DNA of 32,000 nt from Alteromonas ponticola (lineage in GTDB: Bacteria; Pseudomonadota; Gammaproteobacteria; Enterobacterales; Alteromonadaceae). Of the stretch, positions 5,053 to 26,085 are shown in pieces. The stretch lies in NCBI RefSeq assembly GCF_012911815.1, contig NZ_JAATNW010000003.1, forward strand, positions 327,078 through 359,077, given 5' to 3'. Position numbers and translations under genes: made by a program. Under the pieces are notes generated by a model. That model saw only the letters and a program-made list of their open reading frames with translations, ran no database searches and had not been told where the DNA came from. Position 1 is the stretch's first letter. Each line of letters begins with the position of its first letter.

Positions 5053-5061
5053 GGATAAGCT

Positions 5062-7653: not shown

Positions 7654-7898
7654 CTTTTTCCACTTAATTTTAAAGAATATCCGGCCTCATTAGTTAATTA
7701 AAGTGAACGAGTTCGAATGATTCCACAGAGCGAACTTGATCGAATTGAAATGTATTTAAATCTGAGCCACTCCTAAGGTTAATACATTAATATCTGTTGG
7801 CTAGAGAGCAATCATAACATTCAGAGCAATGATCCTCCGTCTAATCGTTTGGAAAGATAATTACATTCAACAATCACTCATCGAAACAATAATAAATT

Positions 7899-9855: not shown

Positions 9856-10096
9856 ACTACTTACTGCATTTCACTAGTTAGGCTTAGCCATCCTAAAATT
9901 TACAATGGCAGCTAAATTATCATGATACTATAGAAGTTCTTCTCTTTTCAGTAAATAACACAAACTGTAAAGTTTAATCTATAAGTAAAAAGTTCAATCA
10001 GATTCAGTCAGTTCGATACTAAATTGGCGGTGCTTATAATCCCAAAAAAGGCTGTTACTGCAAATTGTATCGGATATTTACGAGGAAACATTAGTA
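9856..10096. promoter_or_regulatory. Divergent intergenic region (241 bp) between the GT61-like (-) and aminotransferase (+) genes
   Basis: Position only: it is AT-rich and flanked by two divergently oriented start codons. A GAGGAAA Shine-Dalgarno lies 8 nt before the ATG at 10097. I did not identify -10/-35 elements with any confidence. Confidence 0.3.
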
Positions 10097-11224: not shown

Positions 11225-11300
11225 GATACCGATTTTGATGACATTAATTCGACCTGAAAAGCCTACCAAATTTCGCACGAAAAATTAAAATTGATAGTGA

Positions 11301-12218
11301 TTAGTCCAAAGGATAAGTTTTTGGACTCGCTTCTTTTATGTCATTGAATTCAACTTTGTTCAAGTTTGCGTAGTCTGTCAGCTGCATATTTTGTTTAGGC
11401 GTTTTCCAATCACCATACTGATATGTCAGGTAAGCCTCGTATTCAAAAGGAACGGTGATTTTACTACCATTCCAATTGAGTTTCTCACATGATAAAAAGT
11501 GCTTTTCAGGGCTGTGCCACATTCCTAAGCTCGGCATATGATGTGCGATACCATCCTTAAACTCTCTTAAGGCAAATGAAGTAGAAAAATTAGCAATCTC
11601 ACCCGTTTGATCTGTGAACAAAAGTAGTAGCCCTAAAGTCTCGCCCATTCTATTTTTGAGCTCATCAATACGCCATTCAATGTTATATTCTGAGTGTGCA
11701 ATGAAATCCTTTAACACACTAACAAGTTCAGGTACGCAATCTTTGTCAATTGTAAAATCAATATCGTCGTCCCACGGGATAATATCACCATCGCGGACGA
11801 TGCCAAGTAGAGTACCGAAGTCGACCATTAAAGGAATTTCTTTACTCGCTGACAATTGGCAAAGCAATGTGATGATATGCCGGCCGAGAATTAATGTGTT
11901 TGCATCCCTAAATGGTTCAACCTTGAGCGCTTTTAACGTTTTCTTTTTGGGAATTAGTACTTTGGTCTTATCGATACCCAAACTTTCCGTGAGTTGCGTA
12001 TACACTTCCATAGACCATTGGGTAGTGATAACGATTTGATCAAATTCAAGTTTTAACACTGACTCTGGTCCCATTACGTTTAAATCTCGAATGGTCGTGC
12101 CAACTTTCGTCGGATCATTATCCAGAATACCGATAAATTCCCGCTCGTTATCTTGAACACTATCAAGGTATTGGCATGCGCCAGCACTTGCTCCGAATAA
12201 GAGCGTTTTAATGGTCAT
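11301..12218 (-). CDS. LicD-family phospho-headgroup transferase with an N-terminal Rossmann-like module
   Basis: DFGTLLGIVRDGDIIPWDDDIDFTI is the LicD/fukutin nucleotidyltransferase-fold signature (LLG.vR.g..IPWDDDiD). The N-terminus LLFGASAGACQYL...LDNDPTKVGTTIRDLNVMGP is homologous to the N-terminus of the 8290-9855 protein. Confidence 0.7.
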   Translation of the reverse strand: MTIKTLLFGASAGACQYLDSVQDNEREFIGILDNDPTKVGTTIRDLNVMGPESVLKLEFDQIVITTQWSMEVYTQLTESLGIDKTKVLIPKKKTLKALKVEPFRDANTLILGRHIITLLCQLSASKEIPLMVDFGTLLGIVRDGDIIPWDDDIDFTIDKDCVPELVSVLKDFIAHSEYNIEWRIDELKNRMGETLGLLLLFTDQTGEIANFSTSFALREFKDGIAHHMPSLGMWHSPEKHFLSCEKLNWNGSKITVPFEYEAYLTYQYGDWKTPKQNMQLTDYANLNKVEFNDIKEASPKTYPLD

Positions 12219-12219
12219 A

Positions 12220-13305
12220 TCATGTCCCCTCGTTCAAACTTGATAGCAGGATTTGCTTGATCTGAGCTGAAGTAACAGGCCGAGTAAAGTTTTTTGCTCT
12301 ACTGGGCTCCAAGTCATAATCATACTCACTAATTATTTGCTCTGCTGATGCAAAATGTGTCACCTCATCAACAAGTTTTAGACTGGATAACAAATCTTCA
12401 AGCCCATCTCGTTGCGCTGAGCTAAGCCCCAACTCTTCGTTTTTGAAAAGTGAGAGCAAAGCAGGTAACGTAAAACTACAGGCCAAACCATGCGGAATGC
12501 CATACTTCAAAGTTAGCGAGTAGGACATCGCATGGGCGAGCGCAGTTCGCGTCTCAGTAATTGCCATCCCAGCCAGATTTGCCCCTACCAACATAGTTTT
12601 TCTTGCTTCGAGTGACTGGGGAGTTGCCAGAACCCGGGGCAAACCATCTAACACATGATCAATAGCTGATAAGGCCGCCTTCTGGCTTGAAGGAGTGCGT
12701 TGGTTGTTCCATAACGACTCAAGTGCGTGAGAAAGCGCGTCCAAGCCAGAGTACAAGGTTTCATTTCGCGGGAGTGTCTGTGTTAAGTTCGCGACCAGAA
12801 TAGTTGAGTCTGGTATGCGATCGGAGAACGAGTATTTGGTTTGGGTTCGGCTGTCCCACACCGTGGCAAAAGGAGTGATTTCGGCGCCAGTTCCAGATGA
12901 AGTCGGTATGGTAGTAAGCGGAATCGGTTCGTTATTGGGTAATGCCGTTCTTAAAACAAGATACTCTTCCAGTTTCGCTGAAGATTGACCAAGCATGCGG
13001 CTAAGCACTTTTGCTGAATCCATGACACTTCCACCCCCCAATGCGATGATAGAGGTAAAATCAGTGCGTTGATATTGCTCAAGTATCCGAGCTAAATAAG
13101 CCAATTCAGGATTTGGCGAAACATCTTCGATTACGGTGAATGAACAATTTGGCAGCGAAGCCAGCACTTCATCCACCACACCTCTCTGTCTAAAGCCAGC
13201 ACTGGTTATCAATAATGGTTTACGACCAAGAGACAAGCGACTTAGCGTATCAGTTAATGATTCAGAGATTACTACATTAAACTCCGGCACACTTTCCTTG
13301 ATCAT
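12220..13305 (-). CDS. Group III iron-containing alcohol dehydrogenase; candidate phosphonoacetaldehyde reductase (PhpC/FomC-like)
   Basis: Fe-ADH layout: GGGSVMDSAK, GLDALSHALESLWN, ALAHAMSYSL and GIPHGLACS (metal His ligands). It shares a 4-nt ATGA overlap with the upstream phosphonopyruvate decarboxylase gene. Confidence 0.8.
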   Translation of the reverse strand: MIKESVPEFNVVISESLTDTLSRLSLGRKPLLITSAGFRQRGVVDEVLASLPNCSFTVIEDVSPNPELAYLARILEQYQRTDFTSIIALGGGSVMDSAKVLSRMLGQSSAKLEEYLVLRTALPNNEPIPLTTIPTSSGTGAEITPFATVWDSRTQTKYSFSDRIPDSTILVANLTQTLPRNETLYSGLDALSHALESLWNNQRTPSSQKAALSAIDHVLDGLPRVLATPQSLEARKTMLVGANLAGMAITETRTALAHAMSYSLTLKYGIPHGLACSFTLPALLSLFKNEELGLSSAQRDGLEDLLSSLKLVDEVTHFASAEQIISEYDYDLEPSRAKNFTRPVTSAQIKQILLSSLNEGT

Positions 13306-14444
13306 TTCAAGTGCTCTTGAGCTTTTTGAGTGCTACCAAGATGTTGCATAAACGCTTGCTTATTTTCGATTGGTGTTGATGTGGGACGACCAAGTTCAGC
13401 CCGGGCCCCCTGAGCAATCTGAATTTCGACTAACACGGGCCCCTCACTCTCAGTACAGCGGGTAAAATAATTCTGGATTTCCTTTTCTGATGAAAAGCAC
13501 AGGTAGTCTTTATAGCCACAGGCCTTTGCTAAACCTTTAATATCCACGCTAGTGATCACCGTCGGCTGACCGCCGACAGATTCGTGGCTTTGGTTATTCA
13601 AAACGACGTGAATGAAGTTTGATGGCGCGACTGCCCCTGTTACCGCCAGAGCCCCCATATGCATCAGCATCGAGCCATCTCCATCCAGCGCGACCACCAA
13701 CCTTTTAGGCTGTGCCATGGCTACACCAAGTGAGATTGAGGCGGTGTGTCCCATCCCCCCCACAGTGAGAAAGTCTCGAGTAGGTTGGTTTTTTGCCTTT
13801 CTTAGCTCAAATACCTCGCGTGAAGTTTTCCCTGTGGTCGATACGACCACTGTATCAGGATGCATGCAATCTAAAAGACAAGAGAGTGCACTCTCTCTTT
13901 TCATACTGAATGATTGTAAACCAGGCGAGGACGTCACTGACGCGAAAGTATCTTTTTTCACCACCAATGCCACAGGACGTGACTCTTCATACATTTGTTT
14001 GAGCAACAGCGCAATAGAGTCAAACGTCGATGTACTATCTACAACCAGGTGAGGCACATCGAGTAACTCAAGCTGTTGAAGGGTGATCGCCCCTTGTTTA
14101 ACGTGTTGGGGCTCATCTTTTACGTTCGGTTCACCCCGCCATCCTATTACTAATAGCATGGGAATACTGTATACCTGTCGATCACACAAAGATGTCATTG
14201 GGTTAACGACATTACCTAACCCAGAGTTCTGCATATACACTACAGCTGCATTGCCGGAACCGAGATAGAACCCAGTTGCCATCGCCATTGCATTACCCTC
14301 ATTGGCAGTAATGATATGTTGTTTTTTCTCATAGTGATTATCAATATAAGCACAAAGAGATTTTAACAATGAATCAGGAACACCATAGTATTGAGTTAGC
14401 CCTTTGTGCGCCAGGAACGTACAAAACTCCGCAGGCGAAATCAT
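13302..14444 (-). CDS. ppd: Phosphonopyruvate decarboxylase (ThDP-dependent)
   Basis: The N-terminal GVPDSLLKSL is typical of Ppd/AepY. The ThDP-binding motif is LDGDGSMLMHMGALAV...VVLNNQSHES. Its start overlaps the PEP mutase stop by 1 nt (TAATG at 14444). Confidence 0.85.
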   Translation of the reverse strand: MISPAEFCTFLAHKGLTQYYGVPDSLLKSLCAYIDNHYEKKQHIITANEGNAMAMATGFYLGSGNAAVVYMQNSGLGNVVNPMTSLCDRQVYSIPMLLVIGWRGEPNVKDEPQHVKQGAITLQQLELLDVPHLVVDSTSTFDSIALLLKQMYEESRPVALVVKKDTFASVTSSPGLQSFSMKRESALSCLLDCMHPDTVVVSTTGKTSREVFELRKAKNQPTRDFLTVGGMGHTASISLGVAMAQPKRLVVALDGDGSMLMHMGALAVTGAVAPSNFIHVVLNNQSHESVGGQPTVITSVDIKGLAKACGYKDYLCFSSEKEIQNYFTRCTESEGPVLVEIQIAQGARAELGRPTSTPIENKQAFMQHLGSTQKAQEHLK

Positions 14445-15745
14445 TATTTACCACCCGGAATAAGCTCAAGTATTTGCTTAATTGGCATCATATTTTCGTC
14501 TACTTCAGCCGAGCGCCCATGAGTTAGGATGCTTTGCGCTGTATTCATCATAGCTGGATAAGCGCTACGTAGAAGCTGATTTGCATAAATGACTACATTT
14601 ACGCCTCGTGCCTCTAAATCTTTTTCGTAGACTTGGTTATAACTTGAGGGAACTGCTACGAGCGTTTTTCGATTTGAAAGCTGATTGTAGCGATCACAGA
14701 ATTCGAAAATTTCATCGGGTGATTTCTGCCGACTATGGATCATAATGCCATCAGCACCTGCTTCGAGATAAGCTTGCGCACGCTTCATCGCATCATCGAC
14801 TCCTTGATCAAGAATCAGACTCTCAATACGCGCAATGATCATAAAATCCTGGGTCGCCTGAGCTGTTTTGCCTGCCTGAATTTTATGACAGAAGTTTTCG
14901 ATAGAATCCTGCGTTTGGGCCACGTCGGTACCGAACAAGGAGTTCTTTTTCAAACCTGTCTTGTCTTCAATGATAACCGCCGATACACCGAGGCGCTCCA
15001 GCGTCTTAACTGTAAATACGAAGTGTTCGGTCTTACCACCGGTATCACCATCATAAATAATAGGCTTTGTGGTAACTTCAAGCACTTCGTTCAGTGTAGA
15101 CATGCGCGACGTAACATCGACCGCTTCGATATCGGGCTTTCCCTTGGCAGTAGAGTCTGTCAGGCTGCTTCCCCACATCCCATCAAACTCTCTGGGGCCG
15201 TTCTCTGTCTCTATGCGAGTATTTTCGATAATTAACCCAGAGAGTGCATTATGGATATCCAAAAAACGGACTAAGGGTTTAGCGTTAAGAATTCGACGCA
15301 ATGACTTCAATCGCACCTCTGGGGTGGTGCCAATCTCTTTCATTGCATTATGTATTTGGGTTGAAGAGATGCCGTGGGTATAGGGAACTTCGACTAATTT
15401 TCCATCCCATTGAGCCAGGCAATCGATCACTCGTTGACGGGTTTTCTTTTGAATGCCCGATGTCCAGTCATCACCATGCACAACGAAGTCAGGCTTTAAG
15501 GCCTCTAAGTTTGGCACATAATCCAGCGTTTCCTGAGGGATCACATATTCCACCCCTTTAATATTTTCAATTACCTCTTTGCGTTGCTCAAAAGTCATAA
15601 ATGGAACACGTTTATAGCTGGCAATGGCTTTGTCAGTTAACAAACCCACTGTCACTTCACCTAATTCCGTTGCACGCTTAATAATATTCAGGTGGCCAGG
15701 ATGGACTAAATCAGCGCTCATTCCGAGATATACTTTTTTCGTCAT
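14444..15745 (-). CDS. ppm: Bifunctional cytidylyltransferase (HIGH-type, TagD/ECT-like) / phosphoenolpyruvate mutase fusion
   Basis: Residues 1-135 carry [18 protein letters not shown] (the H-x-G-H cytidylyltransferase motif). Residues about 150-433 are isocitrate-lyase/PEP-mutase fold and carry the Ppm-specific E-D-K-x5-N-S motif. This is [10 protein letters not shown], residues 260-269, nt 14939-14968, checked codon by codon. Confidence 0.9.
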
Positions 15746-15783
15746 TTTCTCTACTTCTAATATGATTTTTGTTGCTCAATATG

Positions 15784-15851
15784 CAATGTAGTGATGTCTG
15801 CGTAAGTTTTTGAATCTGCTTAATTAAGCTTCATTTAATATCACTGCATTG
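15784..15851. repeat. 12-bp inverted repeat (1 mismatch) enclosing a perfect 12-bp palindrome, in the luxC-like/ppm spacer
   Basis: The arms are caatgtagtgat (15784-15795) and atcactgcattg (15840-15851), matching at 11 of 12 positions. GCTTAATTAAGC at 15818-15829 is a perfect palindrome between them. Confidence 0.5.
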
Positions 15852-15925
15852 TCATCTATTCGATAGTTTTAATTTTATATTTACGGCCACAGTGTGAACA
15901 AATACTGTAATGAGTAACTTCACCA

Positions 15926-17101
15926 CTACTCAACACTAATAACTCTTGTGAGCTGATCAACCAGACTATATCCATCCCAGTTAGACGAAAATGATAATGC
16001 TTGTCCTAATGGTATCAGTCGGTCAATACCCTTTATCGACGGGCCGGTTAAAAACTTAACCAGATCCCCTTTATCTATTCCCCAATAACTCAACGTTTGC
16101 ATTTTTTCGTCACAATATTTGGTCAGGTCTTTAATTTCTTCTATCGGTACCACCCAGATTGAAAACTGGCCGTTGTGAAAAGTCAGGTCCAGGGGTGAGC
16201 AAGCCGACATTTTTAAAACCAATAATTTATTATAGATTTGAGCATCTTCGATATTGCCAATTACAGCCATTGATTGCGCCATAATGAACTGCTCGTTTTT
16301 AAGCGTAATTGAATATTTGTCGTTGAATTTATCGCCTAGGGATTTAAAAAATGCAGACTGAAGGGTAGCGTCTCCTTGCCAAAACAAAATTTTTGGAGAA
16401 GAACATGCTTGCTGCTCAAAAGGATGAATATCGCGATAAAATCTTCCCGCTACATCATCAAGGTTTAATTCTGTCAGACTGTTGCCATTTAAAACACTTG
16501 CTGAATAGCGGTCTGAAAAACTTATATCCCGGCATCTTGGTTTGATTGGGAGCTGTCGAATAGCGGAAACACTCTCATCACCTCCCCATAGAATCCGTGC
16601 ATCAGCACTCATACTTACAGTATCTGCTGCTGCATTATTGGACTTATCGAATTGCACAAATAAGTTTGTATTCGAAATAGGTGAAAAGTCTGATTTACTC
16701 AAAACATATTGAATGTTCTCAAGCAGTGTCCTTTGTAAGTCTGATAACAATGAGCTGAGTTTTACAATGTTTTTGTTTCCGCAAATTAAAGAGGTTATCC
16801 AGCTGTAAACAAACATAGTATCGACGTTTGCCGGAGTGTAGTGGACAACTAAACCAACGGGTTTGCGAAGACTGGAAAAATAGGGTTTAAACTCTTTTTC
16901 AAGGCTTCTTTCACGCAACCAAAAACCCAAGGCAACTAACTCAGAAAAATTCTGGTCCGTGTTTTTCAATAACCTGTCAGACAGCTCAGATATAAACGCG
17001 ACAACCAATTTATCATAAGGCCTGAAATTCTCACTTTTAAAAAGATTAAGAGTACTTAAGTCTTGTACATTAGTTACTTGCGTTACCAGGCTTTTATCCA
17101 T
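15926..17101 (-). CDS. LuxC-like acyl-CoA/acyl-protein reductase family protein
   Basis: ALDH-related layout with the candidate catalytic Cys in FEQQACSSPKILFW (LuxC family pattern Q.aCsSP). It has an 8-nt overlap with the upstream LuxE-like gene, the usual LuxC/LuxE pairing. Confidence 0.55.
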   Translation of the reverse strand: MDKSLVTQVTNVQDLSTLNLFKSENFRPYDKLVVAFISELSDRLLKNTDQNFSELVALGFWLRERSLEKEFKPYFSSLRKPVGLVVHYTPANVDTMFVYSWITSLICGNKNIVKLSSLLSDLQRTLLENIQYVLSKSDFSPISNTNLFVQFDKSNNAAADTVSMSADARILWGGDESVSAIRQLPIKPRCRDISFSDRYSASVLNGNSLTELNLDDVAGRFYRDIHPFEQQACSSPKILFWQGDATLQSAFFKSLGDKFNDKYSITLKNEQFIMAQSMAVIGNIEDAQIYNKLLVLKMSACSPLDLTFHNGQFSIWVVPIEEIKDLTKYCDEKMQTLSYWGIDKGDLVKFLTGPSIKGIDRLIPLGQALSFSSNWDGYSLVDQLTRVISVE

Positions 17102-18185
17102 CAGTGGACCTCACTGTATCACTGCACCCTCTTATCTCGGTTTTAGGTAAGCGGCCTTCGACAACAAAATAACGCCCTGCCCTGCCACATTCACAATCAT
17201 CTTCGCCCAGCATTTTACCTATATCTTCCGTAAGTAAACTAAAGCCCGGATAGCTGGTGGGGATGACCGAGAGCACCTGAATAAGTCCTTGTTCACCATT
17301 TGATTGCGGTTCAAGAGTGTAAGGGTTGCGGATGAGAATATCGGCAAACGGCGGAGCGTGCAGGTGGCCTTTTTCACACTCGACAAACACGCTGCCTACC
17401 TGCTCAGCCATACCGTAAAAGTTATGCACTTTTGCTATACAGGTTACCTCTTTTAAGGTTTCTTTGAATACCTGATTACTGACTTGCTGTTCAGTTAATT
17501 TCTTCCAGCCACCGCTATGAATAAGCACACCATCAGTGAATGGCAGTTGCAAATTACGCTGTTGTAAAGCCTGGATAAAGTGCAACCACACCATGAAGGT
17601 AAAACCAAATAACAGTACCGGCTTACCCTGATGCTTTTCAGAAAATTGAGTAATGGCATCCACATTCAGTGACATGTCTACGTTCAGGGCGTAAGTATGA
17701 TCGCGGCCGAAAAATGCCATGCCCTGTATACCGGCCCCCCGCGCCGACAAGGTGGGGTTTTTCAGCACCGCTGGCGAATCAATGATAAGCATTGGTAAGC
17801 GCTGTTTACCGATAAAAGACTGCATGATATTCACCAGCACCTTGCTTTGTCTGGCACTGGTCTGTTTATCCAGAAAAATGCGGGCAGGCGTTTGCCCGGT
17901 GGTACCTGACGAGCTAAGTGTTTTGAACACCTCCGCCTGCGGAACGCTCTTTAATTCGTAAAACTTGAATAGTCTTACGGCCAGGAAAGGCAGGTCTTCG
18001 TAGCGTTCAAACTTTACCTGAGAGAGTGACGTTATGCGCTGATACTCTTCGCAGTTAGCATAATGGTGCTGATGTAAAAACCGAAAGCACTCCAGCAAAA
18101 TGGCAGACTTTTGTGACTGATCAATAGTGTCAGTGCCAGCTTCAAAAAGCGTACCCAGATATTGCTGATAGGAAGATTCTGACAT
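17094..18185 (-). CDS. LuxE-like acyl-protein synthetase (adenylate-forming) family protein
   Basis: It has the SSGTTGQTPARI adenylation P-loop, is 363 aa (LuxE-sized), and is paired with a LuxC-like ORF. Confidence 0.55.
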   Translation of the reverse strand: MSESSYQQYLGTLFEAGTDTIDQSQKSAILLECFRFLHQHHYANCEEYQRITSLSQVKFERYEDLPFLAVRLFKFYELKSVPQAEVFKTLSSSGTTGQTPARIFLDKQTSARQSKVLVNIMQSFIGKQRLPMLIIDSPAVLKNPTLSARGAGIQGMAFFGRDHTYALNVDMSLNVDAITQFSEKHQGKPVLLFGFTFMVWLHFIQALQQRNLQLPFTDGVLIHSGGWKKLTEQQVSNQVFKETLKEVTCIAKVHNFYGMAEQVGSVFVECEKGHLHAPPFADILIRNPYTLEPQSNGEQGLIQVLSVIPTSYPGFSLLTEDIGKMLGEDDCECGRAGRYFVVEGRLPKTEIRGCSDTVRSTDG

Positions 18186-18265
18186 TCATTCACTCTGGTT
18201 TTATCAATCTTTTACGACAGAAATTTGCCTGTTAGTGCTGATTTTGATGAATTAACCTTACAATA

Positions 18266-19654
18266 TCAAGCATTGACAAGGAGTTGGTCATATAACGCGG
18301 TATAATCTGTTTTACCATTTGCCAGTAGCGGCCATTCTTTAATCTGGTAGGTTTTTATCGACTTTGGCGGAACCCGAAGCAACTGAATGGCGCACTGCTT
18401 TATCGCATCGCACTGGCCCGAAGTACAGCAGATAACAAGTTCATCGTCTTTTCCCACGCAGCGCACATCAGAACCTGATTGCATCAAAGCAAATTCAACC
18501 TCATCAAGGCTACACCGCTCTCCGAACAGTTTAATTATCCGCTTCAGCCTGCCAGTAATAAAAAAGTCACCCTCTTCGTCGAAATAGCCGATGTCACCGG
18601 TATGTAGGGTATGTGATGGTGAAAATGAGGCCAGCCCTTCATGTTTATTGACATACCCCAACATCACATTGGGTCCCTGATAGACTAATTCACCTTTTTC
18701 TAGTGCACTCCTTATGGGTTCGCCATCTTCATTTATGATAGCAAGTTGACCATCAGGGAGAGCCTGTCCGATGCTGCCAGGCTTTGCGGCGACCTTGTGG
18801 GCAGGAAGGTATGCCATACGGGCGGTGGCTTCGGTTTGACCGTACATTACGAACAATTGTTTGTTATTGTGATCAGCATAGTCAGCAAGTTTGACCACCA
18901 ATGGTTCAGCTAACTTGCCGCCAGCCTGAGTCAAATAACGCAGATTCGGCAAAACGTTGCGCTCAAACCGCAAACGCAGCAGCATTTCATACCAACTGGG
19001 AACGCCATTTAGCGAAGCGATGTTGGCCTCTTTCAATAGTGTCCAGAAACCTTTATCCATCACGGTCAGATCAGTCAGACGAACACCTGCGCCCATCGCT
19101 AGATGGGTATGCAATACAGACAGCCCATATGAATAGGAAAATGGTAATGAAGCTAATGTTACATCGCTATTTTCAATGGGTAAGAAAGCCAAAATAGAGC
19201 GTGTATTGGCAATCAGATTCTGCATCGACAAAGCGACAAATTGCTGACTGCCTGTAGAGCCTGATGTGGATAACAGGATCGCTAATTCAGCTGCCAGATT
19301 AAGCTGCTGTTGAGATAGTAACCGAAAGCTTCCTTCTTCAATCAGGACATTGGGAGAAAACTGCTGAACAATCGCGGCTACGATTTCGTCCCGCGCATTG
19401 CTGTTAACTACAATGCACGGATAATGAGCTTGCAGACAGGCTAAATAGTTGACGACGCTGTCAATGGTGTTAGCCATTCGCAGTAACATTAACGGTCGCA
19501 GACTGCCCACGCGCAACTGCCATTCATTTATTCGTTGGTCAACGCGTTTTTGCAGCCCGGCATAGGTGATTGAATCGGCGTCACTGATTAACGCGGGGGC
19601 GGCGCCGAATTGATCCAGTGAGCGATTAAACAAGGGAAACGACATTAAGGGCAA
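18266..19654 (-). CDS. AMP-dependent synthetase/ligase (stand-alone adenylation enzyme, DltA-like size)
   Basis: ANL core motifs are present: LLSTSGSTGSQQ (A3), YGQTEAT (A5), GDIGYFDEEGDFFITGRLKRIIKLFGERCSL (A7/A8) and NGKTDY (A10 Lys). Length is 462 aa. Confidence 0.85.
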   Translation of the reverse strand: MPLMSFPLFNRSLDQFGAAPALISDADSITYAGLQKRVDQRINEWQLRVGSLRPLMLLRMANTIDSVVNYLACLQAHYPCIVVNSNARDEIVAAIVQQFSPNVLIEEGSFRLLSQQQLNLAAELAILLSTSGSTGSQQFVALSMQNLIANTRSILAFLPIENSDVTLASLPFSYSYGLSVLHTHLAMGAGVRLTDLTVMDKGFWTLLKEANIASLNGVPSWYEMLLRLRFERNVLPNLRYLTQAGGKLAEPLVVKLADYADHNNKQLFVMYGQTEATARMAYLPAHKVAAKPGSIGQALPDGQLAIINEDGEPIRSALEKGELVYQGPNVMLGYVNKHEGLASFSPSHTLHTGDIGYFDEEGDFFITGRLKRIIKLFGERCSLDEVEFALMQSGSDVRCVGKDDELVICCTSGQCDAIKQCAIQLLRVPPKSIKTYQIKEWPLLANGKTDYTALYDQLLVNA

Positions 19655-20412
19655 AATGCCCCATCCACCGGCAGTATGTGCCCGGTGGTGTAAGCCGATT
19701 GGTTGGATAATAAAAAGCTGACGGCTTTAGCCACATCGGCTGGTGTGCCGGCACGCTTCATAACAATACGCTGCAACACAATGTCGCGCCTTTCCTGGTC
19801 GTAATGTCTGGTCATTGCTGTGTCAATAAAGCCAGGCGCCACACCGTTTACGCGAATACCCACAGGGGCTAATTCTTTGGCCAGCGATACAGTAGCGCCT
19901 TTCAACGCGGCTTTGCTTGATGCATAAGCGCTCATGCCGGAACTACCAAGTTCACCTACTTGAGAGAGAACATTAACAATTGATCCTTTACGTTGCCGCG
20001 CCATCAATCTACAGGCAAGTTGCATATGCTGATAGGGTGCCAGAAAATTAATATTTAATTGCTCTTTAAGCTTATCCATAGAGCTAACAGTTATAGGCGC
20101 TTCAAACATCACACCAGCGTTATTCACTAAACCATGCAAAGGCCCGATATCTGATTGCATCTGCATTTTTTGAATTTGGCGAAATTGTTCTTTTACGGCT
20201 TTTTCATCTGTTACATCGTAGATGAGCGGTACGACTTTCCCTGCCCAACTGTCAAGCAGTGGCGCAAGCTTATCTTCATCACGGGCATTAGCGAAGACCG
20301 AAGCTCCTGACTTGAGACACGCGGCAACAATGGCTTGTCCAATCTCTCCCGTGGCCCCGGTCACTAAAACTGACTTACCCTTGAGGCTATTAGGATCAGA
20401 ATTGGACGTCAT
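19645..20412 (-). CDS. Short-chain dehydrogenase/reductase (FabG-like 3-oxoacyl reductase)
   Basis: VLVTGATGEIGQAI (T-G-x3-G-x-G), NNAG and YASSKAAL (Y-x3-K). It overlaps the downstream ligase gene by 10 nt. Confidence 0.85.
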   Translation of the reverse strand: MTSNSDPNSLKGKSVLVTGATGEIGQAIVAACLKSGASVFANARDEDKLAPLLDSWAGKVVPLIYDVTDEKAVKEQFRQIQKMQMQSDIGPLHGLVNNAGVMFEAPITVSSMDKLKEQLNINFLAPYQHMQLACRLMARQRKGSIVNVLSQVGELGSSGMSAYASSKAALKGATVSLAKELAPVGIRVNGVAPGFIDTAMTRHYDQERRDIVLQRIVMKRAGTPADVAKAVSFLLSNQSAYTTGHILPVDGAFCP

Positions 20413-20635
20413 ACTTTGCCAGAATTTCTTTTGCTTTGCCCACCGTGCTCATATCGATGATGTCATCCGTGTCTAGCATCACATCAAAGCTATCTTCTAA
20501 TTCTGCGACCAGTATCATGTGCGCAGTTGAATCCCATTGTTCGATTGTGTTGTAGGTCAAGTCATCGGTCACCTGCTCTGGTTGAATCCCCAGGGCGTGA
20601 CAGAATACCTGCTTAATTTTTGCGTTGTTATCCAC
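20396..20635 (-). CDS. Acyl/peptidyl carrier protein
   Basis: 79 aa and acidic, with a candidate phosphopantetheine site in EQWDSTAHMILVAELE (D-S-x motif at the start of helix II). It overlaps the SDR gene by 17 nt. Confidence 0.75.
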   Translation of the reverse strand: MDNNAKIKQVFCHALGIQPEQVTDDLTYNTIEQWDSTAHMILVAELEDSFDVMLDTDDIIDMSTVGKAKEILAKYDVQF

Positions 20636-20649
20636 TCTATACGACCTTA

Positions 20650-21231
20650 TTATCCTTTACGCGGCGACCTGGAAAGTAATCGCCTGATTAAACCAGTGTG
20701 CCGCTCAAACTCTTCTTTTTGCAAGCGTAAATCAATTAATTCTGCCTGATTGACGACTTGATAGCCAAGTTGCTGATTATATTTTAACGCCGCTTTATTC
20801 TCCGCTTTAACCACCGCAAAAAAACTTTCTACTGGCAGATCCCTAAAGCAGTAATCATACAATGCCAGGGTGGGCGCAAAAGCAAGTATATTACCCTGGT
20901 ACCCAGGGTGGCCAATATACAACCCGGGCTCCAGCGTTTTTGCTGTAGTTAGTGAGTCGCCATGAAATCGCACTTTAATATTCGTCGCACCGATTGCTTG
21001 CCCTTTATATTCCACAACCCAGTGCTGCTGTGAATCATCACGTTGGATTTTTTTAAACCAGGCGTACTGCTGTTCTTCTGAGATAACATCGGTAGAAAGC
21101 ATCTGCTGTCGCACAGACTCGCTATTGCGCCACTCTCTAAGTTGGCTTAAATCATTTTGCGCAACTGGGCGCAATGTAACTTGAAACCCAGTTATCACAG
21201 GGCCTTGTGAAGAGTGATAAACATTTATCAT
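20650..21231 (-). CDS. pseH: GNAT N-acetyltransferase, PseH-like (UDP-4-amino-4,6-dideoxy-N-acetyl-beta-L-altrosamine N-acetyltransferase)
   Basis: LRPVAQNDLSQLREWRNSESVRQQM is the typical PseH opening (lrp....d...l..WRN...vr..m). It shares a 4-nt overlap with pseG. Confidence 0.7.
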   Translation of the reverse strand: MINVYHSSQGPVITGFQVTLRPVAQNDLSQLREWRNSESVRQQMLSTDVISEEQQYAWFKKIQRDDSQQHWVVEYKGQAIGATNIKVRFHGDSLTTAKTLEPGLYIGHPGYQGNILAFAPTLALYDYCFRDLPVESFFAVVKAENKAALKYNQQLGYQVVNQAELIDLRLQKEEFERHTGLIRRLLSRSPRKG

Positions 21232-22253
21232 ATTTGATGTTCAGCAATTTTTTTCAACAGCCTCATTGCACCTTCAGCATCATAATGCCCTTTGGCATTA
21301 TCTGACAAGGCTTGTAAATCTTCTTTCAAAAGTGCGTCTACGCAGCTTGCGATATCTTCAAATTGCACGCTTTCGGTACAATCAAAACTCCGCACCCAGC
21401 CTTCTTTTGCGGCCCGTTTAGTGGCCTCTCTCTGATTATCTGCAACTATAAGCAAAATCGAAGGCGTTGCACATGTTCCCAACTCGAACTGACTGCCCCC
21501 AGCTGCACTGATGGCCAATTTAGCATTGTTCCAGACGTCACTCATATCCTGGCAGTTATGTAAATGTTGAATGGGGTTTGAGAGCGCAGCGACACATATC
21601 TCCAGATCGGTTAGCCATTGGTATGCCGGGCCCGTTACCACACGGATAGGCAGATTGGGCAACCTTTTCGAAATGGCCATTAACAATGGGATAGTCAAAT
21701 TCTTAGTATCACTCCCACCCAGATTGATGGCTATACCGTTTCGCTGGTGTATTGGTTTTGGTGCAATCTCGGCAAATTCCCTGCGCAGCAGCCTAAATTC
21801 AGGTCCGTAGCAACACAACTGTTGTTCAGAATCATCTTTAGGGTCTGCTGTGGGATCTACAATAATATCCACGAATTGCGTTACCGATGTCATACCATCA
21901 TCCATTAACACCAGCGTACAACTCTCACTGCGGCTCGCTAGGATGGTCTCAGCAGCAAATGTGTATCCGTCAAAAATTATCGCTGCGGCATCCTGCTCTC
22001 TCGCTTGCTGGCTAATCCAGTTACCCTCCTCTTTGGCACAAAGCTCAGAAGGAAAATCAATAATCTGAAAATTCCAGTCGTGCCGTTTAGTTGCAATGGA
22101 TTTAGCGTCTGCATCTAACAAAAATACACTGGGTACACCACATTTTTCTGCAGCCTGAGCCAGCGCAAGACTACGCATAAGGTGGCCCGCACCAGTTTGA
22201 GCCGATGCAAGTACTCTGAATAACAATGATCTCAAGAGACGACCTGCTCCCAC
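21228..22253 (-). CDS. pseG: UDP-2,4-diacetamido-2,4,6-trideoxy-beta-L-altropyranose hydrolase, PseG-like (GT-B fold)
   Basis: The N-terminus LLFRVLASAQTGAGHLMRSLALA matches the PseG pattern (FRaD.s..iG.GH.mRcL.LA). It is about 340 aa and sits between pseI and pseH. The annotated start overlaps pseI by 22 nt, so the exact start is uncertain. Confidence 0.7.
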   Translation of the reverse strand: MGAGRLLRSLLFRVLASAQTGAGHLMRSLALAQAAEKCGVPSVFLLDADAKSIATKRHDWNFQIIDFPSELCAKEEGNWISQQAREQDAAAIIFDGYTFAAETILASRSESCTLVLMDDGMTSVTQFVDIIVDPTADPKDDSEQQLCCYGPEFRLLRREFAEIAPKPIHQRNGIAINLGGSDTKNLTIPLLMAISKRLPNLPIRVVTGPAYQWLTDLEICVAALSNPIQHLHNCQDMSDVWNNAKLAISAAGGSQFELGTCATPSILLIVADNQREATKRAAKEGWVRSFDCTESVQFEDIASCVDALLKEDLQALSDNAKGHYDAEGAMRLLKKIAEHQI

Positions 22254-23287
22254 TTAAGTGCAGTGCCTTTTTTCAATGACGTAGCCGCTCTTTTACCTAT
22301 CACTGACGCAAAATGGCATGGCGCCAGGCCGAATGCGGGACGAACCACTTTTAGATTGTGTTCAGAAAACACCTCGCCAGCGTTCATATCTTGCGATACA
22401 TATATTGAACGCCGGTACTGTTTTGATTTCTCTTCAGCAGCCGTAGCTCCGTAACGCACGTTGCCCAATGCTAACCACGCTCGTTCCGTTTCGGTAACCA
22501 ATTGTGCTAATTCACCAGGCTCTAACGAAAAGGCGGCATCCACCCCACCTGCATGTCGGTCAAGCACAAAATGCTTTTCAATTACCGTCGCACCTAATGC
22601 AACGGAAGCTACCGCTGCGCCGATACCGCCCGTGTGATCGCTAAGCCCCACTTGACAGCCAAAGGCGTCGCGCATATTTGGAATGGTTCTTAAGTTGGTA
22701 TTACCGGGATCTGCAGGATACGTGCTTGTGCATTTAAGCAAGATAATATTGTCGCAGCCGTTTTCCTTAGCACATTTAACAGCCATTTCAATTTCTTGTA
22801 AGCTCGCCATGCCCGTTGACATAATTAAAGGTTTGCCTTTACTGGCGGCATGCGCAATCAACGGAATATCGGTCAATTCAAACGAGGCAATCTTAAAGCA
22901 GGGTACGTTCAGGCTATCAAGAAAATCCACCGCATCGGCATCAAAAGGGGAGCTGAACGCCACCATGCCCAGGTCATTGGCTAATGTGAACAACGGTTCA
23001 TGCCACTCATAAGGTGTCGCCGCTTTCTTATATAACGCATGCAACGATTCACCGTGCCATAAATTATCTTTTTCTTTGATCACAAACTCGTCGTTATCGA
23101 CATCCAGAGTCATTGAATCAGCAGTATAAGTTTGCAATTTTATCGCATGTGCACCCGCTTCTGCCGCAGCCTTGACCATTTTTTTCGCCAGCTCGAAATC
23201 CTGGCTATGGTTGCCACTCAGTTCTGCAATAATAAACGGGGGCTCTGTGGAACCGATAAAGCGTTTACCAATGCGGGTATCATGCAT
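22232..23287 (-). CDS. pseI: Pseudaminic acid synthase (NeuB family)
   Basis: PFIIAELSGNHSQDFELAKKMVKAAAEAGAHAIKLQTY is the NeuB/PseI signature. A C-terminal SAF domain is present (LKVVRPAFGL...KKGTAL). Confidence 0.9.
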   Translation of the reverse strand: MHDTRIGKRFIGSTEPPFIIAELSGNHSQDFELAKKMVKAAAEAGAHAIKLQTYTADSMTLDVDNDEFVIKEKDNLWHGESLHALYKKAATPYEWHEPLFTLANDLGMVAFSSPFDADAVDFLDSLNVPCFKIASFELTDIPLIAHAASKGKPLIMSTGMASLQEIEMAVKCAKENGCDNIILLKCTSTYPADPGNTNLRTIPNMRDAFGCQVGLSDHTGGIGAAVASVALGATVIEKHFVLDRHAGGVDAAFSLEPGELAQLVTETERAWLALGNVRYGATAAEEKSKQYRRSIYVSQDMNAGEVFSEHNLKVVRPAFGLAPCHFASVIGKRAATSLKKGTALKWEQVVS

Positions 23288-24251
23288 TAGCCTTCCCCTC
23301 TATAATTTGAATTATTCCTTCCACTAAACTTTCCACCGATACTGGCTGGTCGCTCATTTCAGTAGCGTAATCAGGCATGATTGTCTGCGGATCGATACGG
23401 CCGCTAATTAGTAAAACTGGCGTGTTGACTGCAGCCGCTAACCACTGTGCACCCGCGGGAATGCTTACCAGAAGATCGCATGCCTTAAGCTTACTAAGCT
23501 TTTCCTGCATTTTTGCCTCATCATCCAGACCTGAATATACTTTAAAGTCCCTCGCCGTAAGCTGGCGCGCAAGCTCATCAGAGAATGGGTAACACTCGGT
23601 AGAAGAGGCACCACTCAAAGCCAGCGCAATGGTTTTTAGTGGCTGACTTTCAATCATTTTTTCGGCATCAACATCAATTGAGATGTCCATATTAATATCG
23701 GCAAATCCACAGCACCTACGTAAATAAAATTCAGGATAGCCACCCTCAGGAGGTTCTCCATGCAGCCACCAATTTTCAAACCAACTGTGCATGCCAGTCC
23801 ATGTGCTCTGCAGGTATTGCTCAGGTGAATTTACGTAATCAGCTGATAGAGACTGGTGTTTGAAGTCATCAATGATATCTTGTACTGAGCGATTCAGCGT
23901 ATTGCCGATAACAGGTTCCCCTGCATCTTTTAAAAACCTTGCCATAAAGCAGGGCATGAACCAAGTATCCAGATTTATGATCTCGGTATAGTTGTAACTG
24001 TTGATAATTTCTGCCAGTTCGAGAAACACTTCCATCGCAGCAACAAAGTCTTCTGGCCAGTCAGCCTGGGCAAGATCCAAAACAGTTACATCGGGTTCTG
24101 CCAGGCGGACTATTTCGCTGCCCTGACCAAAGGTAAGGCAGTGGATATCAGCCTCAGGGAAGCAGCGTTTAAGATGCCTGATGGCAGGTACACCGATAGC
24201 AGCCACATCGAAACTTTCCATCATTCTGATAACGAGAATTTTCTCCGCCAT
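23280..24251 (-). CDS. Glycosyltransferase family 9 (heptosyltransferase-fold)-like protein
   Basis: The N-terminus KILVIRMMESFDVAAIGVPAIRHLKRCFPEADIHCLT follows the GT9 pattern (ILVIR....GD....tPa.r.LK..fP.a.I..L), but the GD is replaced by FD. The C-terminus LKACDLLVSIPAGAQWLAAAVNTPVLLISG resembles the GT9 l..a.l.i.nDSG.mHlAaA.g.P.v.lfG block. Confidence 0.5.
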   Translation of the reverse strand: MAEKILVIRMMESFDVAAIGVPAIRHLKRCFPEADIHCLTFGQGSEIVRLAEPDVTVLDLAQADWPEDFVAAMEVFLELAEIINSYNYTEIINLDTWFMPCFMARFLKDAGEPVIGNTLNRSVQDIIDDFKHQSLSADYVNSPEQYLQSTWTGMHSWFENWWLHGEPPEGGYPEFYLRRCCGFADINMDISIDVDAEKMIESQPLKTIALALSGASSTECYPFSDELARQLTARDFKVYSGLDDEAKMQEKLSKLKACDLLVSIPAGAQWLAAAVNTPVLLISGRIDPQTIMPDYATEMSDQPVSVESLVEGIIQIIEGKANA

Positions 24252-24253
24252 GG

Positions 24254-24943
24254 CTATCCTTCAATATATGCATTATACATGAGTTCAGCGCGCTGCCAGT
24301 CTTCTGGCGTATCGATATCCTGAACAAGATATCTGGGAAGTATGACAGGTATACTGTGATGTGCAAAAGTGGGGGCCCCAGCTAAAAAAGCCTCTTTGCG
24401 GCCCCAGTAAAATTGCCCTGCGTCGTGATAGCACTCTTCTAAGTCTTGCGAACGTTTACCCATTTTGGAGCTATCGATGGGCTCTACCCCGCCGGCTGCT
24501 AACCTGATGGCTCGTTGAATGGGAAAATCAAATGTCGTCACCGAAAAGGCATATTGTTTTTTCTCATCCTGTTTAAGCTGATTTATGCCTTGCAAAAGAT
24601 AGTCTGCACTTAAAAAAGGCGCGGTGGCATAAATACAACACACAAAATCAACTGCCTGATAAAGGCGTTCGTATTCTTTGATTGCGTGCTGTACTACAGG
24701 TGTCGTGCCAGTAAAATCATCGGCCAGATTGGCCGGTCGCTCAATAACTAGCGTTGCGCCGCACTCGCGCGCTATTTTCGCAATGTCTGGAGAATCTGTT
24801 GAAACAATAATTTCATCAAACTGGCGACTATTAATCGCCGCGTCTATGGAATAGGCAATAAGCGGTTTACCCGCAAACGATTTGATATTTTTGTGCTTTA
24901 TACGTTTGCTGCCGCCACGCGCTGGTATTACTGCGATATTCAA
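24254..24943 (-). CDS. pseF: Pseudaminic acid cytidylyltransferase (CMP-NeuAc synthetase family)
   Basis: MNIAVIPARGGSKRIKHKNIKSFAGKPLIAYSI is the acylneuraminate cytidylyltransferase signature. It shares a 4-nt overlap with pseC. Confidence 0.85.
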   Translation of the reverse strand: MNIAVIPARGGSKRIKHKNIKSFAGKPLIAYSIDAAINSRQFDEIIVSTDSPDIAKIARECGATLVIERPANLADDFTGTTPVVQHAIKEYERLYQAVDFVCCIYATAPFLSADYLLQGINQLKQDEKKQYAFSVTTFDFPIQRAIRLAAGGVEPIDSSKMGKRSQDLEECYHDAGQFYWGRKEAFLAGAPTFAHHSIPVILPRYLVQDIDTPEDWQRAELMYNAYIEG

Positions 24944-26085
24944 CTTAACACCTGCTCAAGCTGGGTAATAACATGTTGTTGGTCAGCTTCGCTTAACGTG
25001 GGATACAAGGGAAGGCTCAATGCCCTGTCATAATAGGTTTCTGCGTTAGTAAACTGGCCCTTCCTGAAGCCTAAGTTCTGATAGTAAGGGTGGAGATGGA
25101 TCGGAATATAATGCACATTGACCCCCACACCATTTTTACGCAGGGTATCAAACACATATTGTCGTGAGTGCTCGGTTAATTCGATGGTATACAAATGCCA
25201 GGCACTATTGTCATCCATCAATGGCTTTTTTACTGGCAGCGAGGGCAAAGCGTGATCATACCTTTTAGCCCTTTCACGTCTGGCTGCGATATATCCATCC
25301 AGTCTTTGCAGCTGGCTTTTGCCTAATACAGCATGCAGGTCACTTAACCGATAATTATAACCAAGTTCAAGTTGAGTGTAGAACCAGCCCTGTTGAGCGT
25401 CGCTTGTATTCAACATTGCAGGGTCCCGGGTGATACCATGAGAGGCAAACAGCTTAAGCTTTTGCCTGAAACGCTCAGAATTTGTGGTTACCGCTCCCCC
25501 CTCGGCCGAGGTAATGGATTTGACCGGATGAAAACTTAATACCGTCATATCGGTATAAGTACACTTACCCACATTGTTGTCCTGTGCATCCCGGCCCCCT
25601 AATGCATGCGCCGCATCCTCAATGAGAACGATGCCATAAGGGTTGGTTAACTCGCTAATGGCTTTCATATCACAACTGCTGCCAGCAAAATGTACCACCA
25701 CTATTGCTTTGGGTAAGGTCTTTTGCTTTTTCGCGTGCGCAATTTTCTCCTCTAGCGCACTAATCGACATGTTACGGGTGTCAGGATCGATATCGACAAA
25801 GTCCACCCTGGCACCACAATACAAAGCACAATTTGCCGAGGCTGCAAAAGAGTTTGGCGACGTCCACACCAAGTCACCGGGTCCGATCTCAGCGGCTAAG
25901 CACGCGATATGCAATGCAGAGGTGCCGCTGTTGGCAGCTACCGTATACTTTGCACCGGTGTAGTCACACAAGGCCTGTTCAAAAGCCGGAACCTGTGCGC
26001 CCTGAGTTAAAAATTCATTTTTGAGTACATCAACAACAGCGTCTATATCCGATTCTTGAATATCGTGACAACCATAAGGGATCAT
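24940..26085 (-). CDS. pseC: UDP-4-amino-4,6-dideoxy-N-acetyl-beta-L-altrosamine transaminase (DegT family)
   Basis: MIPYGCHDIQESDIDAV..., EDAAHALGG and SFHPVKSITSAEGGAV (PLP Lys). It lies directly after pseB with a 4-nt overlap. Confidence 0.85.
   Translation of the reverse strand: MIPYGCHDIQESDIDAVVDVLKNEFLTQGAQVPAFEQALCDYTGAKYTVAANSGTSALHIACLAAEIGPGDLVWTSPNSFAASANCALYCGARVDFVDIDPDTRNMSISALEEKIAHAKKQKTLPKAIVVVHFAGSSCDMKAISELTNPYGIVLIEDAAHALGGRDAQDNNVGKCTYTDMTVLSFHPVKSITSAEGGAVTTNSERFRQKLKLFASHGITRDPAMLNTSDAQQGWFYTQLELGYNYRLSDLHAVLGKSQLQRLDGYIAARRERAKRYDHALPSLPVKKPLMDDNSAWHLYTIELTEHSRQYVFDTLRKNGVGVNVHYIPIHLHPYYQNLGFRKGQFTNAETYYDRALSLPLYPTLSEADQQHVITQLEQVLS

Follow-up and report, generated by a model that had tools for sequence, protein, structure and literature searches.

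A carrier-protein, ligase and LuxE/LuxC cassette beside pseudaminic acid genes of Alteromonas ponticola may supply a short hydroxylated acyl group for amino-sugar N-acylation

We analysed a 32,000-nucleotide (nt) stretch of the Alteromonas ponticola genome (RefSeq assembly GCF_012911815.1, contig NZ_JAATNW010000003.1, positions 327,078 to 359,077; hereafter the window), with a focus on five minus-strand open reading frames (ORFs) located between a PseH-like acetyltransferase gene and a group of phosphonate genes. They encode a carrier protein, a FabG-like short-chain dehydrogenase/reductase (SDR), a stand-alone adenylating ligase of the ANL family, and relatives of the LuxE acyl-protein synthetase and the LuxC thioester reductase. 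On balance, and with a little more than even confidence, we read this cassette as a portable module for making a short hydroxylated acyl group, which is built on a dedicated carrier and provided in place of an acetyl group on an amino sugar. The same joint reading gives Pse5Ac7(acyl), a derivative of pseudaminic acid (Pse), as the product expected here, with UDP-4-amino-4,6-dideoxy-beta-L-AltNAc as the acceptor. The cassette almost always follows an amino-sugar N-acyltransferase, and the fold of that enzyme varies with context.

Results

The cassette recurs next to amino-sugar N-acyltransferases

By scanning one genome per species, we found at least 599 species genomes with LuxE relatives and analysed the 80 best loci, in which cassette genes were counted by tblastn with the window proteins and upstream genes were identified from targeted upstream ORFs. 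All five genes recur together in 71 of the 80 loci, the exceptions being short contigs or variants without the SDR, and 61 loci have the gene order of the window, most of the others differing only by a swap of the SDR and carrier genes; the grouping is therefore far beyond chance. Taxonomically, they range over Gammaproteobacteria, Alpha- and Betaproteobacteria, Campylobacterota, Desulfuromonadales, Firmicutes, Bacteroidota and Zixibacteria. Among the hosts are Alteromonadaceae, Aeromonas, Marinobacter, Rheinheimera, Shewanella, Idiomarina and Sphingomonadales, along with Roseateles and other Burkholderiales, Sulfurimonadaceae, Desulfuromonadales, Zixibacteria, Marinilabiliales and Firmicutes. 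Identity to the window proteins across the loci is 52–76% for LuxE, 33–61% for the ligase and 28–53% for LuxC. LuxE and LuxC are each present in at least 78 loci and the SDR is kept in 73. The LuxE-like protein has more than 7900 homologue clusters, and its closest named homologue, among the matches listed, comes from Alteromonas (75% identity).

A comparative search for the five-gene order next to pse genes had been suggested with an earlier, sequence-only description of the window (the original prediction), and the association proved to be common: 54 loci encode PseI no more than 10 kb away, and in 48 the gene directly upstream of that for the carrier encodes a PseH-like GNAT. In loci without pse genes, Pfam confirmed the upstream protein as an N-acyltransferase of another fold in the cases of one PglD_N plus hexapeptide protein, one plain hexapeptide protein and a different GNAT, and in five further loci the upstream proteins resemble hexapeptide acyltransferases, as judged by eye. 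The persistence of an N-acyltransferase partner through changes of fold is our strongest argument that the cassette output would be an acyl donor for N-acylation. The assignment of the cassette to glycan modification and not to lipid metabolism, made in the original prediction, is thus supported, and a non-acetyl N-acyl substituent for the nonulosonate becomes the most plausible reading, given the divergent PseH in those 48 loci and another N-acyltransferase in most others.

Several loci depart from the standard content. Five otherwise intact cassettes (L014, L018, L022, L024 and L030; about 8200–12300 in each) consist of carrier, ligase, LuxE and LuxC genes only, from which we predict that the core of the cassette is these four genes and that the SDR performs a tailoring step. 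Two other loci (L076, 5900–13200; L077, 8500–19800) have a two-gene insert in the cassette that is, by eye, a split transketolase, and in L077 there are, in addition, another LuxE-LuxC pair and another SDR. Because transketolase adds a C2 unit to an aldehyde, these variants suggest that the aldehyde is an intermediate which, in L076 and L077, would be elaborated further into longer, polyhydroxy acyl chains. In seven loci of the Alteromonas group (L020, L023, L026–L029 and L037), a maf gene encoding about 1166 residues lies exactly between the ligase and LuxE genes. Since this insertion point corresponds to the sole non-overlapping junction of the cassette in the window (80 nt), the ligase/LuxE junction appears to mark a division of the cassette into two sub-modules.

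A divergent PseH-like protein precedes the carrier gene

In the window, the stop codon of the PseH-like GNAT gene is 14 nt from the start of the carrier gene. This protein is the only PseH candidate in the window, is distantly related to Campylobacter jejuni PseH (4xpk, E 7e-6), and is the sole Pse enzyme there to score under its equivalog cut-off, which PseB, PseC, PseF and PseG as well as PseI all pass (Table 1). A single flagellar glycosylation island, with all its genes in one direction, takes up the whole right half of the window. In the direction of transcription it reads FliD (partial), FliS, a 128-residue ORF, Maf, PseB, PseC, PseF, a 323-residue protein, PseI, PseG, the PseH-like GNAT, the cassette, a cytidylyltransferase–phosphoenolpyruvate (PEP) mutase fusion, phosphonopyruvate decarboxylase (Ppd), an iron-containing alcohol dehydrogenase (Fe-ADH) and LicD. 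The 323-residue protein is conserved and occupies the same position in 26 loci, apparently all of Alteromonadaceae type; neither the Aeromonas loci nor the further lineages that were checked have it.

The ORF list and Pfam confirmed the five cassette ORFs at the positions and on the strand first assigned to them, and their spacing was reproduced with the listed starts (overlaps of 17, 10 and 8 nt, and one gap of 80 nt). For the ligase, an alternative ATG at 19645, three codons past the TTG, gives a TAATG junction with a 1-nt overlap and a protein of 459 residues, which is the length called in its closest named relative (L002). Judged from these features, the ATG is more likely than the TTG to be the true start, so the 10-nt overlap between the SDR and ligase genes is uncertain. 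The five genes are predicted to be co-transcribed; a promoter and terminator scan of 15500–21400 gave a site count no higher than in shuffled sequence, which leaves only the tight gene spacing.

Active-site residues point to a small, polar acid

The catalytic residues of all five proteins are intact, and the motifs quoted in the original prediction were found: the carrier has WDST, the SDR TGATGEIG and YASSK, LuxE SSGTTG and LuxC QQACSSP. The phosphopantetheine site of the carrier is Ser36, within W34-D35-S36...H39-M40, and W34, D35, S36, H39 and M40 are invariant in 63 of 63 orthologues. With a best NCBIfam score of 33 bits, under every AcpP cut-off (66–146), the 79-residue protein is predicted to be the dedicated acyl carrier protein (ACP) of the cassette. 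The SDR scores 191.5 against a FabG equivalog cut-off of 297.75; S150, Y163 and K167 are invariant in 64 of 64 orthologues, and R44, present in 62 of them, points to an NADPH-type enzyme.

The best NCBIfam matches of the SDR are 3-oxoacyl-ACP reductases and acetoacetyl-CoA reductases, and among the non-acetyl N-acyl groups that marine bacteria carry on bacillosamine and nonulosonates, 3-hydroxybutyryl amides are the most common. Both facts would suit a scheme in which acetoacetate is loaded (or the acetoacetyl-ACP of the cell is used), the SDR reduces it and PseH produces Pse5Ac7(3-hydroxybutyryl), LuxE and LuxC being unrelated to the process. We consider this quite unlikely, as it gives no role to LuxE and LuxC, the two most tightly linked and best conserved genes (LuxE 52–76%; each in at least 78 loci), whereas the SDR is the one dispensable gene; in addition, it predicts a sugar of 360.15 Da, against the 376.14 Da recorded in Aeromonas (see below).

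The best solved relatives of the ligase are oxalate-CoA ligase (5ie0, E 3e-32) and then DltA (3e7w, E 4e-30). Its A4 motif, Y-S-Y-G-L-S, is well conserved (S179 invariant; Y174 and G177 in 70 of 71 orthologues), and the A10 residue Lys448 is invariant in all 71. The original prediction had credited the ligase with all ANL core motifs, and nearly all of them are there; the part that did not stand is the A3 P-loop, which reads GSQQF in the window versus G[SA]PK, with Gln138 replacing the Lys of 70 of the 71 orthologues. The analogy with amino-acid loading by DltA/DltC, also drawn at the outset, is not supported: DltA Asp197, which binds the alpha-amino group, aligns with Ser175 of the ligase (FSFD in DltA versus FSYS here), and of 71 orthologues, 62 have Ser and 4 have Thr at this position (66 together). 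The ligase and LuxC of the window diverge more from their nearest relatives (56–61% and 52–53% identity, respectively) than do the carrier, SDR and LuxE (75–88%).

The LuxE-like protein aligns with Photobacterium phosphoreum LuxE (7xc6_E, E 5e-20), its C-terminal RGCS falling on KGCS; all 60 orthologues keep C354, K228 and the SSGT motif, and R345 is invariant in the 18 sequences of alignment A1. In P. phosphoreum LuxE, Lys238 and Arg355 drive adenylation and thioesterification and Cys364 is the acyl carrier residue (PMC9157457). The LuxE-like protein is thus predicted to adenylate a carboxylate and to hold the acyl group on its C-terminal Cys354. In the LuxC-like protein, QQACSS aligns with QQACFS of LuxC (7xc6_A), with C233, invariant in 75 of 75 orthologues, on the catalytic Cys, where an aldehyde would be formed. 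Because the Lys, Arg and Cys of LuxE and the catalytic Cys of LuxC are conserved, the relay from acyl-AMP through acyl-S-LuxE and acyl-S-LuxC to an aldehyde is probably retained.

Both proteins nevertheless score far under the NCBIfam equivalog cut-offs (LuxE, 79.8 versus 550 bits; LuxC, 36 versus 750 bits). The LuxC-like protein is about 85 residues shorter than bioluminescence LuxC, and its match covers positions 141–445 of the 478 in the hidden Markov model and ends three residues before the end of the protein. In the LuxC structure solved by cryo-electron microscopy, a C-terminal oligomerisation segment closes a hydrophobic cleft of >40 Å for myristate (C14) (PMC9157457), and the LuxC-like protein lacks this segment. 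The kinship of the ligase to oxalate-CoA ligase and DltA, the change of the DltA Asp to Ser175 and the lack of the cleft-closing segment argue for a small, polar, non-amino acid as the substrate of the cassette, not a C14 chain.

These features bear on the interpretation current in the literature, in which the flagellin glycan is lipidated to a "liposugar" by a fatty aldehyde or acyl chain derived from a long-chain fatty acid. The only biochemically characterised LuxC/LuxE pair does reduce myristate, and a liposugar is what the Aeromonas and enterobacterial papers suggest, with the genes labelled as fatty-acid synthesis. We regard this as very unlikely. The enzymes of type II fatty acid synthesis that were looked for, ketosynthase, dehydratase and enoyl reductase, are absent from the cassette genes, the other window ORFs and the identified families of the related loci, recurrent neighbours included. 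The carrier and SDR fall under the AcpP and FabG cut-offs, the closest solved relatives of the ligase are small-acid enzymes, and the LuxC-like protein is without the segment forming the long hydrophobic cleft. Finally, no lipid-sized mass occurs on the Aeromonas glycans of cassette strains, whose Pse derivative is only 60 Da heavier than Pse5Ac7Ac.

An Aeromonas sugar matches a dihydroxybutyryl substituent in mass

In Aeromonas strains with an orthologous cassette, a Pse derivative of 376.14 Da is found (oxonium 377.16), and sugars of 316 or 403 Da in strains that lack the cassette; for AH-3, the masses are those given in later work of the groups that first described its glycan. None of the glycopeptide spectra of A. 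hydrophila ATCC 7966 shows a Pse signal at 316 Da. The 376 Da sugar stays when the downstream glycosyltransferase gene fgi-1 is deleted. Replacing one acetyl of Pse5Ac7Ac (316.127) with C4H6O3 gives a computed mass of 376.148 and an oxonium ion of 377.155. Of the other substituents computed, none fits: hydroxybutyryl gives 360.15, homoseryl 375.16, succinyl or oxo-hydroxybutanoyl 374.13 and malyl 390.13. This agreement is suggestive only, the suggestion being that the 376.14 Da sugar is Pse with dihydroxybutyryl in place of one acetyl. The terminal unit of the AH-3 glycan, 102 Da, also matches C4H6O3 numerically (102.03 Da). As a separate observation, the major 422 Da linking sugar of ATCC 7966 (oxonium 423.15–423.17) is numerically equal to a Pse core with one dihydroxybutyryl and one glyceroyl group (422.154), for the present no more than a coincidence of arithmetic. 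Pseudoalteromonas and its relatives are known to have amino sugars with N-(4-hydroxybutyryl) and N-(4-malyl) groups, so such acyl chemistry is present in related marine genera; we found no paper that joins dihydroxybutyryl with Pse.

Neighbouring phosphorus and amino-sugar genes

PEP-mutase genes follow LuxC in only nine of the 80 loci, and in at least seven of these nine (L011, L013, L014, L015, L036, L045 and L059) the same four phosphonate and LicD genes are found there. Because they follow LuxC in so few loci, the cassette does not depend on the phosphonate genes, and the idea of the original prediction that it links the sugar to phosphorus headgroups does not hold as a general role. The phosphonate block itself suggests that a CMP-activated hydroxyethyl- or similar phosphonate is moved onto a glycan. 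In the closest relatives, L001 and L002, LuxC is followed by a GT-2-like glycosyltransferase, as judged by eye.

The phosphorus genes also raise the question of whether the aldehyde could be the functional product, as a reactive oxo-acyl handle, cyclised, transaminated to an omega-amino acyl group, or joined to phosphonate or phosphoramidate head groups. The phosphonate genes directly after LuxC in the window and in nine related loci would agree with this, as would the DegT aminotransferases that are frequent neighbours, the five cassettes without an SDR and the aldehyde chemistry used by the transketolase-containing variants. Such a role is unlikely, however, since an SDR with an intact catalytic triad is kept in 73 loci and 71 loci are without phosphonate genes, since the Fe-ADH beside the phosphonate genes matches the phosphonate-type PsrA family, and since the mass seen in Aeromonas agrees with the alcohol (376.148) and with neither the aldehyde (374.133) nor an amine.

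At the left end of the window, the plus-strand genes at 840–6449 form a set that we take to resemble the Campylobacter phosphoramidate (MeOPN) pathway, Cj1415–1418, as reported by the Raushel laboratory. This block also follows the cassette in Aeromonas sanarellii (L042) and in two Rheinheimera loci (L062 and L067).

Positions 6907–11224 hold a second amino-sugar set, and in a Duganella locus (L079, 1600–10600) homologues of its GNAT (GNAT248), aminotransferase and FdtA flank or adjoin the cassette, and pse genes are absent. More than one sugar may thus be served by the acyl donor. For the window, this raises the possibility that the cassette serves the 3-amino-3,6-dideoxyhexose of the FdtA, DegT and GNAT248 set, or both sugars; in keeping with this, 3,6-dideoxy-3-(4-hydroxybutyramido)-galactose is known from Pseudoalteromonas. 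We find this quite improbable, as the cassette is 14 nt from the PseH-like gene, whereas the four phosphonate and LicD genes intervene on the other side and FdtA and GT61 lie beyond a divergently transcribed aminotransferase gene. Moreover, adjacency to a PseH-like gene is found in 48 loci, versus one locus for GNAT248.

Table 1. Features of the window discussed in the text (positions are those of the window; cut-offs are those of NCBIfam equivalog models).
Feature	Position	Strand	Remarks
Partial Glyphos_transf ORF	4-843		alongside phosphoramidate-like set
APS-kinase-like protein	840-1376	(+)	
Formyltransferase-like ORF	1941-2675		alongside phosphoramidate-like set
PPDK-like protein, 794 aa	2668-5052	(+)	PRK05849, 937 bits
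C26 amidotransferase	5062-5691	(+)	gamma-glutamyl-CDP-amidate hydrolase, 87 bits, under cut-off
MobA-like NTP transferase	5688-6449	(+)	
GNAT with LRV domain (GNAT248)	6907-7653		
FdtA-like isomerase	7899-8303		
GT61	8290-9855		
DegT aminotransferase	10097-11224		
LicD	11301-12218	(-)	
Fe-ADH	12220-13305	(-)	closest to phosphonate-type PsrA model, 295 bits, under cut-off
Phosphonopyruvate decarboxylase	13302-14444	(-)	
Cytidylyltransferase–PEP mutase fusion	14444-15745	(-)	directly after LuxC
LuxC-like thioester reductase, 391 aa	15926..17101	(-)	Pfam PF05893, E 5e-31
LuxE-like acyl-protein synthetase, 363 aa	17094..18185	(-)	Pfam PF04443, E 8e-47
Stand-alone ANL ligase, 462 aa	18266..19654	(-)	Pfam AMP-binding, PF00501, E 3e-41
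FabG-like SDR, 255 aa	19645..20412	(-)	Pfam adh_short_C2, E 1e-49
Carrier protein, 79 aa	20396..20635	(-)	Pfam PP-binding, PF00550, E 4e-5
Divergent PseH-like GNAT	20650..21231	(-)	TIGR03585, 71.5 bits, under 93.1 cut-off
PseG	21228-22253	(-)	above cut-off
PseI	22232-23287	(-)	above cut-off
323-aa protein between PseF and PseI	23280-24251	(-)	no Pfam family; heptosyltransferase III match very weak, E 5e-6
PseF	24254-24943	(-)	above cut-off
PseC	24940-26085	(-)	above cut-off
PseB	26082-27089	(-)	above cut-off
Maf, 1155 aa, unusually long	27079-30546	(-)	two Maf_flag10_N stretches and MptE-like domain

Discussion

The cassette encodes two adenylating enzymes but one carrier and one thioester reductase, which argues for two carboxyl activations with different fates. 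We propose that the ANL ligase would adenylate one carboxyl of a small non-amino acid, in the simplest case a C4 di-acid such as malate or succinate, and that the acyl group would end as a thioester on the Ser36-phosphopantetheine of the carrier, this being the end that later becomes the amide. LuxE would then adenylate the other carboxyl, and the acyl group would pass via Cys354 to Cys233 of LuxC, where NADPH reduction would give the aldehyde. In a third step the SDR would reduce the aldehyde (or a 3-oxo group) to the alcohol. Last, the PseH-like GNAT would use the acyl-carrier protein, not acetyl-CoA, on the 4-amino group of the Pse precursor, the group that becomes N7 of Pse. The most likely product class is hydroxy- or dihydroxybutyryl. 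The first three steps could equally take place on the free acid before loading, as proposed for tetronate in Vibrio cholerae.

In V. cholerae O1, tetronate (3-deoxy-L-glycero-tetronate) is assigned to VC0248–VC0252 (rfbK-L-M-N-O / wbeK-O) in a pathway that is a sequence-based proposal only. Its parts are a carrier (RfbK), a ligase for 2,4-dihydroxybutanoate (RfbL), an Fe-ADH (WbeM) and a LuxC/LuxE fusion (WbeN, 2478 nt), and the product is N-(2,4-dihydroxybutyryl)-perosamine. RfbO is said to have been described by Morona and colleagues in 1995 as the acyltransferase of the pathway. Extended along these lines, our proposal becomes a cross-phylum, tetronate-type module that would half-reduce malate to a dihydroxybutyryl-carrier, from which a retuned PseH would make Pse5Ac7(dihydroxybutyryl); this specific version is tentative, and we place it well short of even. 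The Fe-ADH downstream of the window cassette (12220–13305) was considered as a counterpart of WbeM and rejected, as its best match is PsrA and it travels with PEP mutase and Ppd in the nine loci that have them.

Several points weigh against a hydroxylated acyl donor, or against its dihydroxybutyryl version. For LuxC/LuxE in O-antigen, capsule and flagellin contexts we found only genomic descriptions, and in the papers found there is no assay of a cassette enzyme and no deletion of the five genes alone. Transfer by a GNAT from an acyl-carrier-protein donor is assumed. The alcohol step would not be universal, as five loci are without an SDR, and the atypical A3 motif (Gln138) might lower the activity of the window ligase. 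The match to the Aeromonas sugar is nominal and comes from low-resolution ion-trap data; C4H6O3 has isomers such as O-methylglyceroyl, and the additional 60 Da could have other origins. Because the ligases of the window and Aeromonas share 36–43% identity and the LuxC proteins 28–31%, the acyl group may also differ between the two. The parallel with V. cholerae, in turn, is drawn from published description, not from sequence comparison.

How flagellin is decorated with nonulosonates has effects on filament assembly, motility and immune recognition, and the N-acyl groups contribute a major part of the diversity of these decorations. The cassette is widespread, as the count of at least 599 species genomes with LuxE relatives shows, and the label of fatty-acid synthesis that it consistently bears is wrong in our view. 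The dihydroxybutyryl version, if true, would give an identity to the flagellin sugar of 376 Da in Aeromonas, which has been unsolved since 2012, and possibly also to the 102 Da cap; thousands of LuxC/LuxE homologues now annotated as fatty-acid enzymes would then have a defined, non-bioluminescent role as well. The concrete prediction is a carrier-bound (di)hydroxybutyryl donor used by a PseH variant; if it is confirmed, a large protein family would have its annotation corrected. Aeromonas, with its established mutants and glycopeptide mass spectrometry, allows a direct test.

The window cassette is a further instance of a gene set already documented. Forn-Cuni et al. described 98 Aeromonas "Group II" islands with the same five ORFs downstream of pseH, annotated them as acyl carrier protein, 3-oxoacyl-ACP reductase, AMP-dependent synthetase, luxE and luxC, and interpreted them as converting fatty acids to a fatty aldehyde, possibly for a "liposugar" (Forn-Cuni et al., 2021; PMC7874193). 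De Maayer and Cowan reported Acp, FabG, CaiC, LuxE and LuxC in flagellin glycosylation islands of about 70–80 enterobacterial strains (De Maayer and Cowan, 2016), and a 2024 preprint again labelled AHA_4172–4176 "fatty acid synthesis"; papers on Plesiomonas and Clostridium flagellin do not mention lux genes. The original prediction had mentioned LuxC/LuxE-like pairs in some flagellar glycosylation islands of Aeromonas and Shewanella. For Aeromonas this was correct, down to exactly these five genes downstream of pseH (PMC7874193). For Shewanella it was only loosely right: one genome (L054) has the cassette, but the sfmABCDE genes studied in S. oneidensis are a different set, with a PseI-like protein, a FabG-like reductase, an S-adenosylmethionine methyltransferase and an ATP-grasp protein, and are ruled out as this cassette (PMC3765264). 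To these descriptions, the present analysis adds the cross-phylum survey, the pairing with N-acyltransferases, the case against the "fatty acid" label, the tetronate parallel and the Aeromonas mass prediction.

The Aeromonas Group II island (orf1–orf3, luxE and luxC; A. piscicola AH-3; AHA_4172–4176 in A. hydrophila ATCC 7966) agrees with the window in gene families and order and in the position of the cassette, directly downstream of pseH in a pse and maf island next to flagellar genes. Loci of seven Aeromonas species align over the full length, at 62–66% identity for the carrier, 55–56% for LuxE, 40–43% for the SDR, 36–43% for the ligase and 28–31% for LuxC. The two differ in that pseFGI are divergently transcribed in Aeromonas, whereas the Pse genes share the cassette strand in the window; in that luxC is followed there by a conserved GT-2 gene (fgi-1) and here by the cytidylyltransferase–PEP mutase fusion; and in that the host of the window cassette is Alteromonas-like.

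Compared with LuxC-LuxE of Photobacterium phosphoreum (PDB 7XC6), the cassette has the same Pfam families, the LuxE Lys/Arg pair and acyl-Cys, and the LuxC Cys. It differs in its glycan-synthesis context, and no luxA, luxB or luxD is found among the window ORFs. DltA/DltC likewise pairs a stand-alone ANL enzyme with a carrier of about 80 residues; in contrast, the window has Ser for the amino-binding Asp, is without DltB or DltD, and adds a reductase pair.

The closest system linked to a known product is V. cholerae tetronate, which is alike in logic. Both have a dedicated carrier, an ANL ligase (roughly 470 residues in V. cholerae), LuxC and LuxE functions, an alcohol-forming dehydrogenase and an N-acyltransferase, with an N-acylated amino sugar as the product. 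The differences lie in the parts: LuxC and LuxE are fused in WbeN and separate in the window, the alcohol dehydrogenase is of the iron type there and an SDR here, and the acceptor is GDP-perosamine there and the UDP-linked Pse precursor here. The transferase, finally, is a hexapeptide-repeat enzyme in V. cholerae, and its counterpart in the window is a GNAT.

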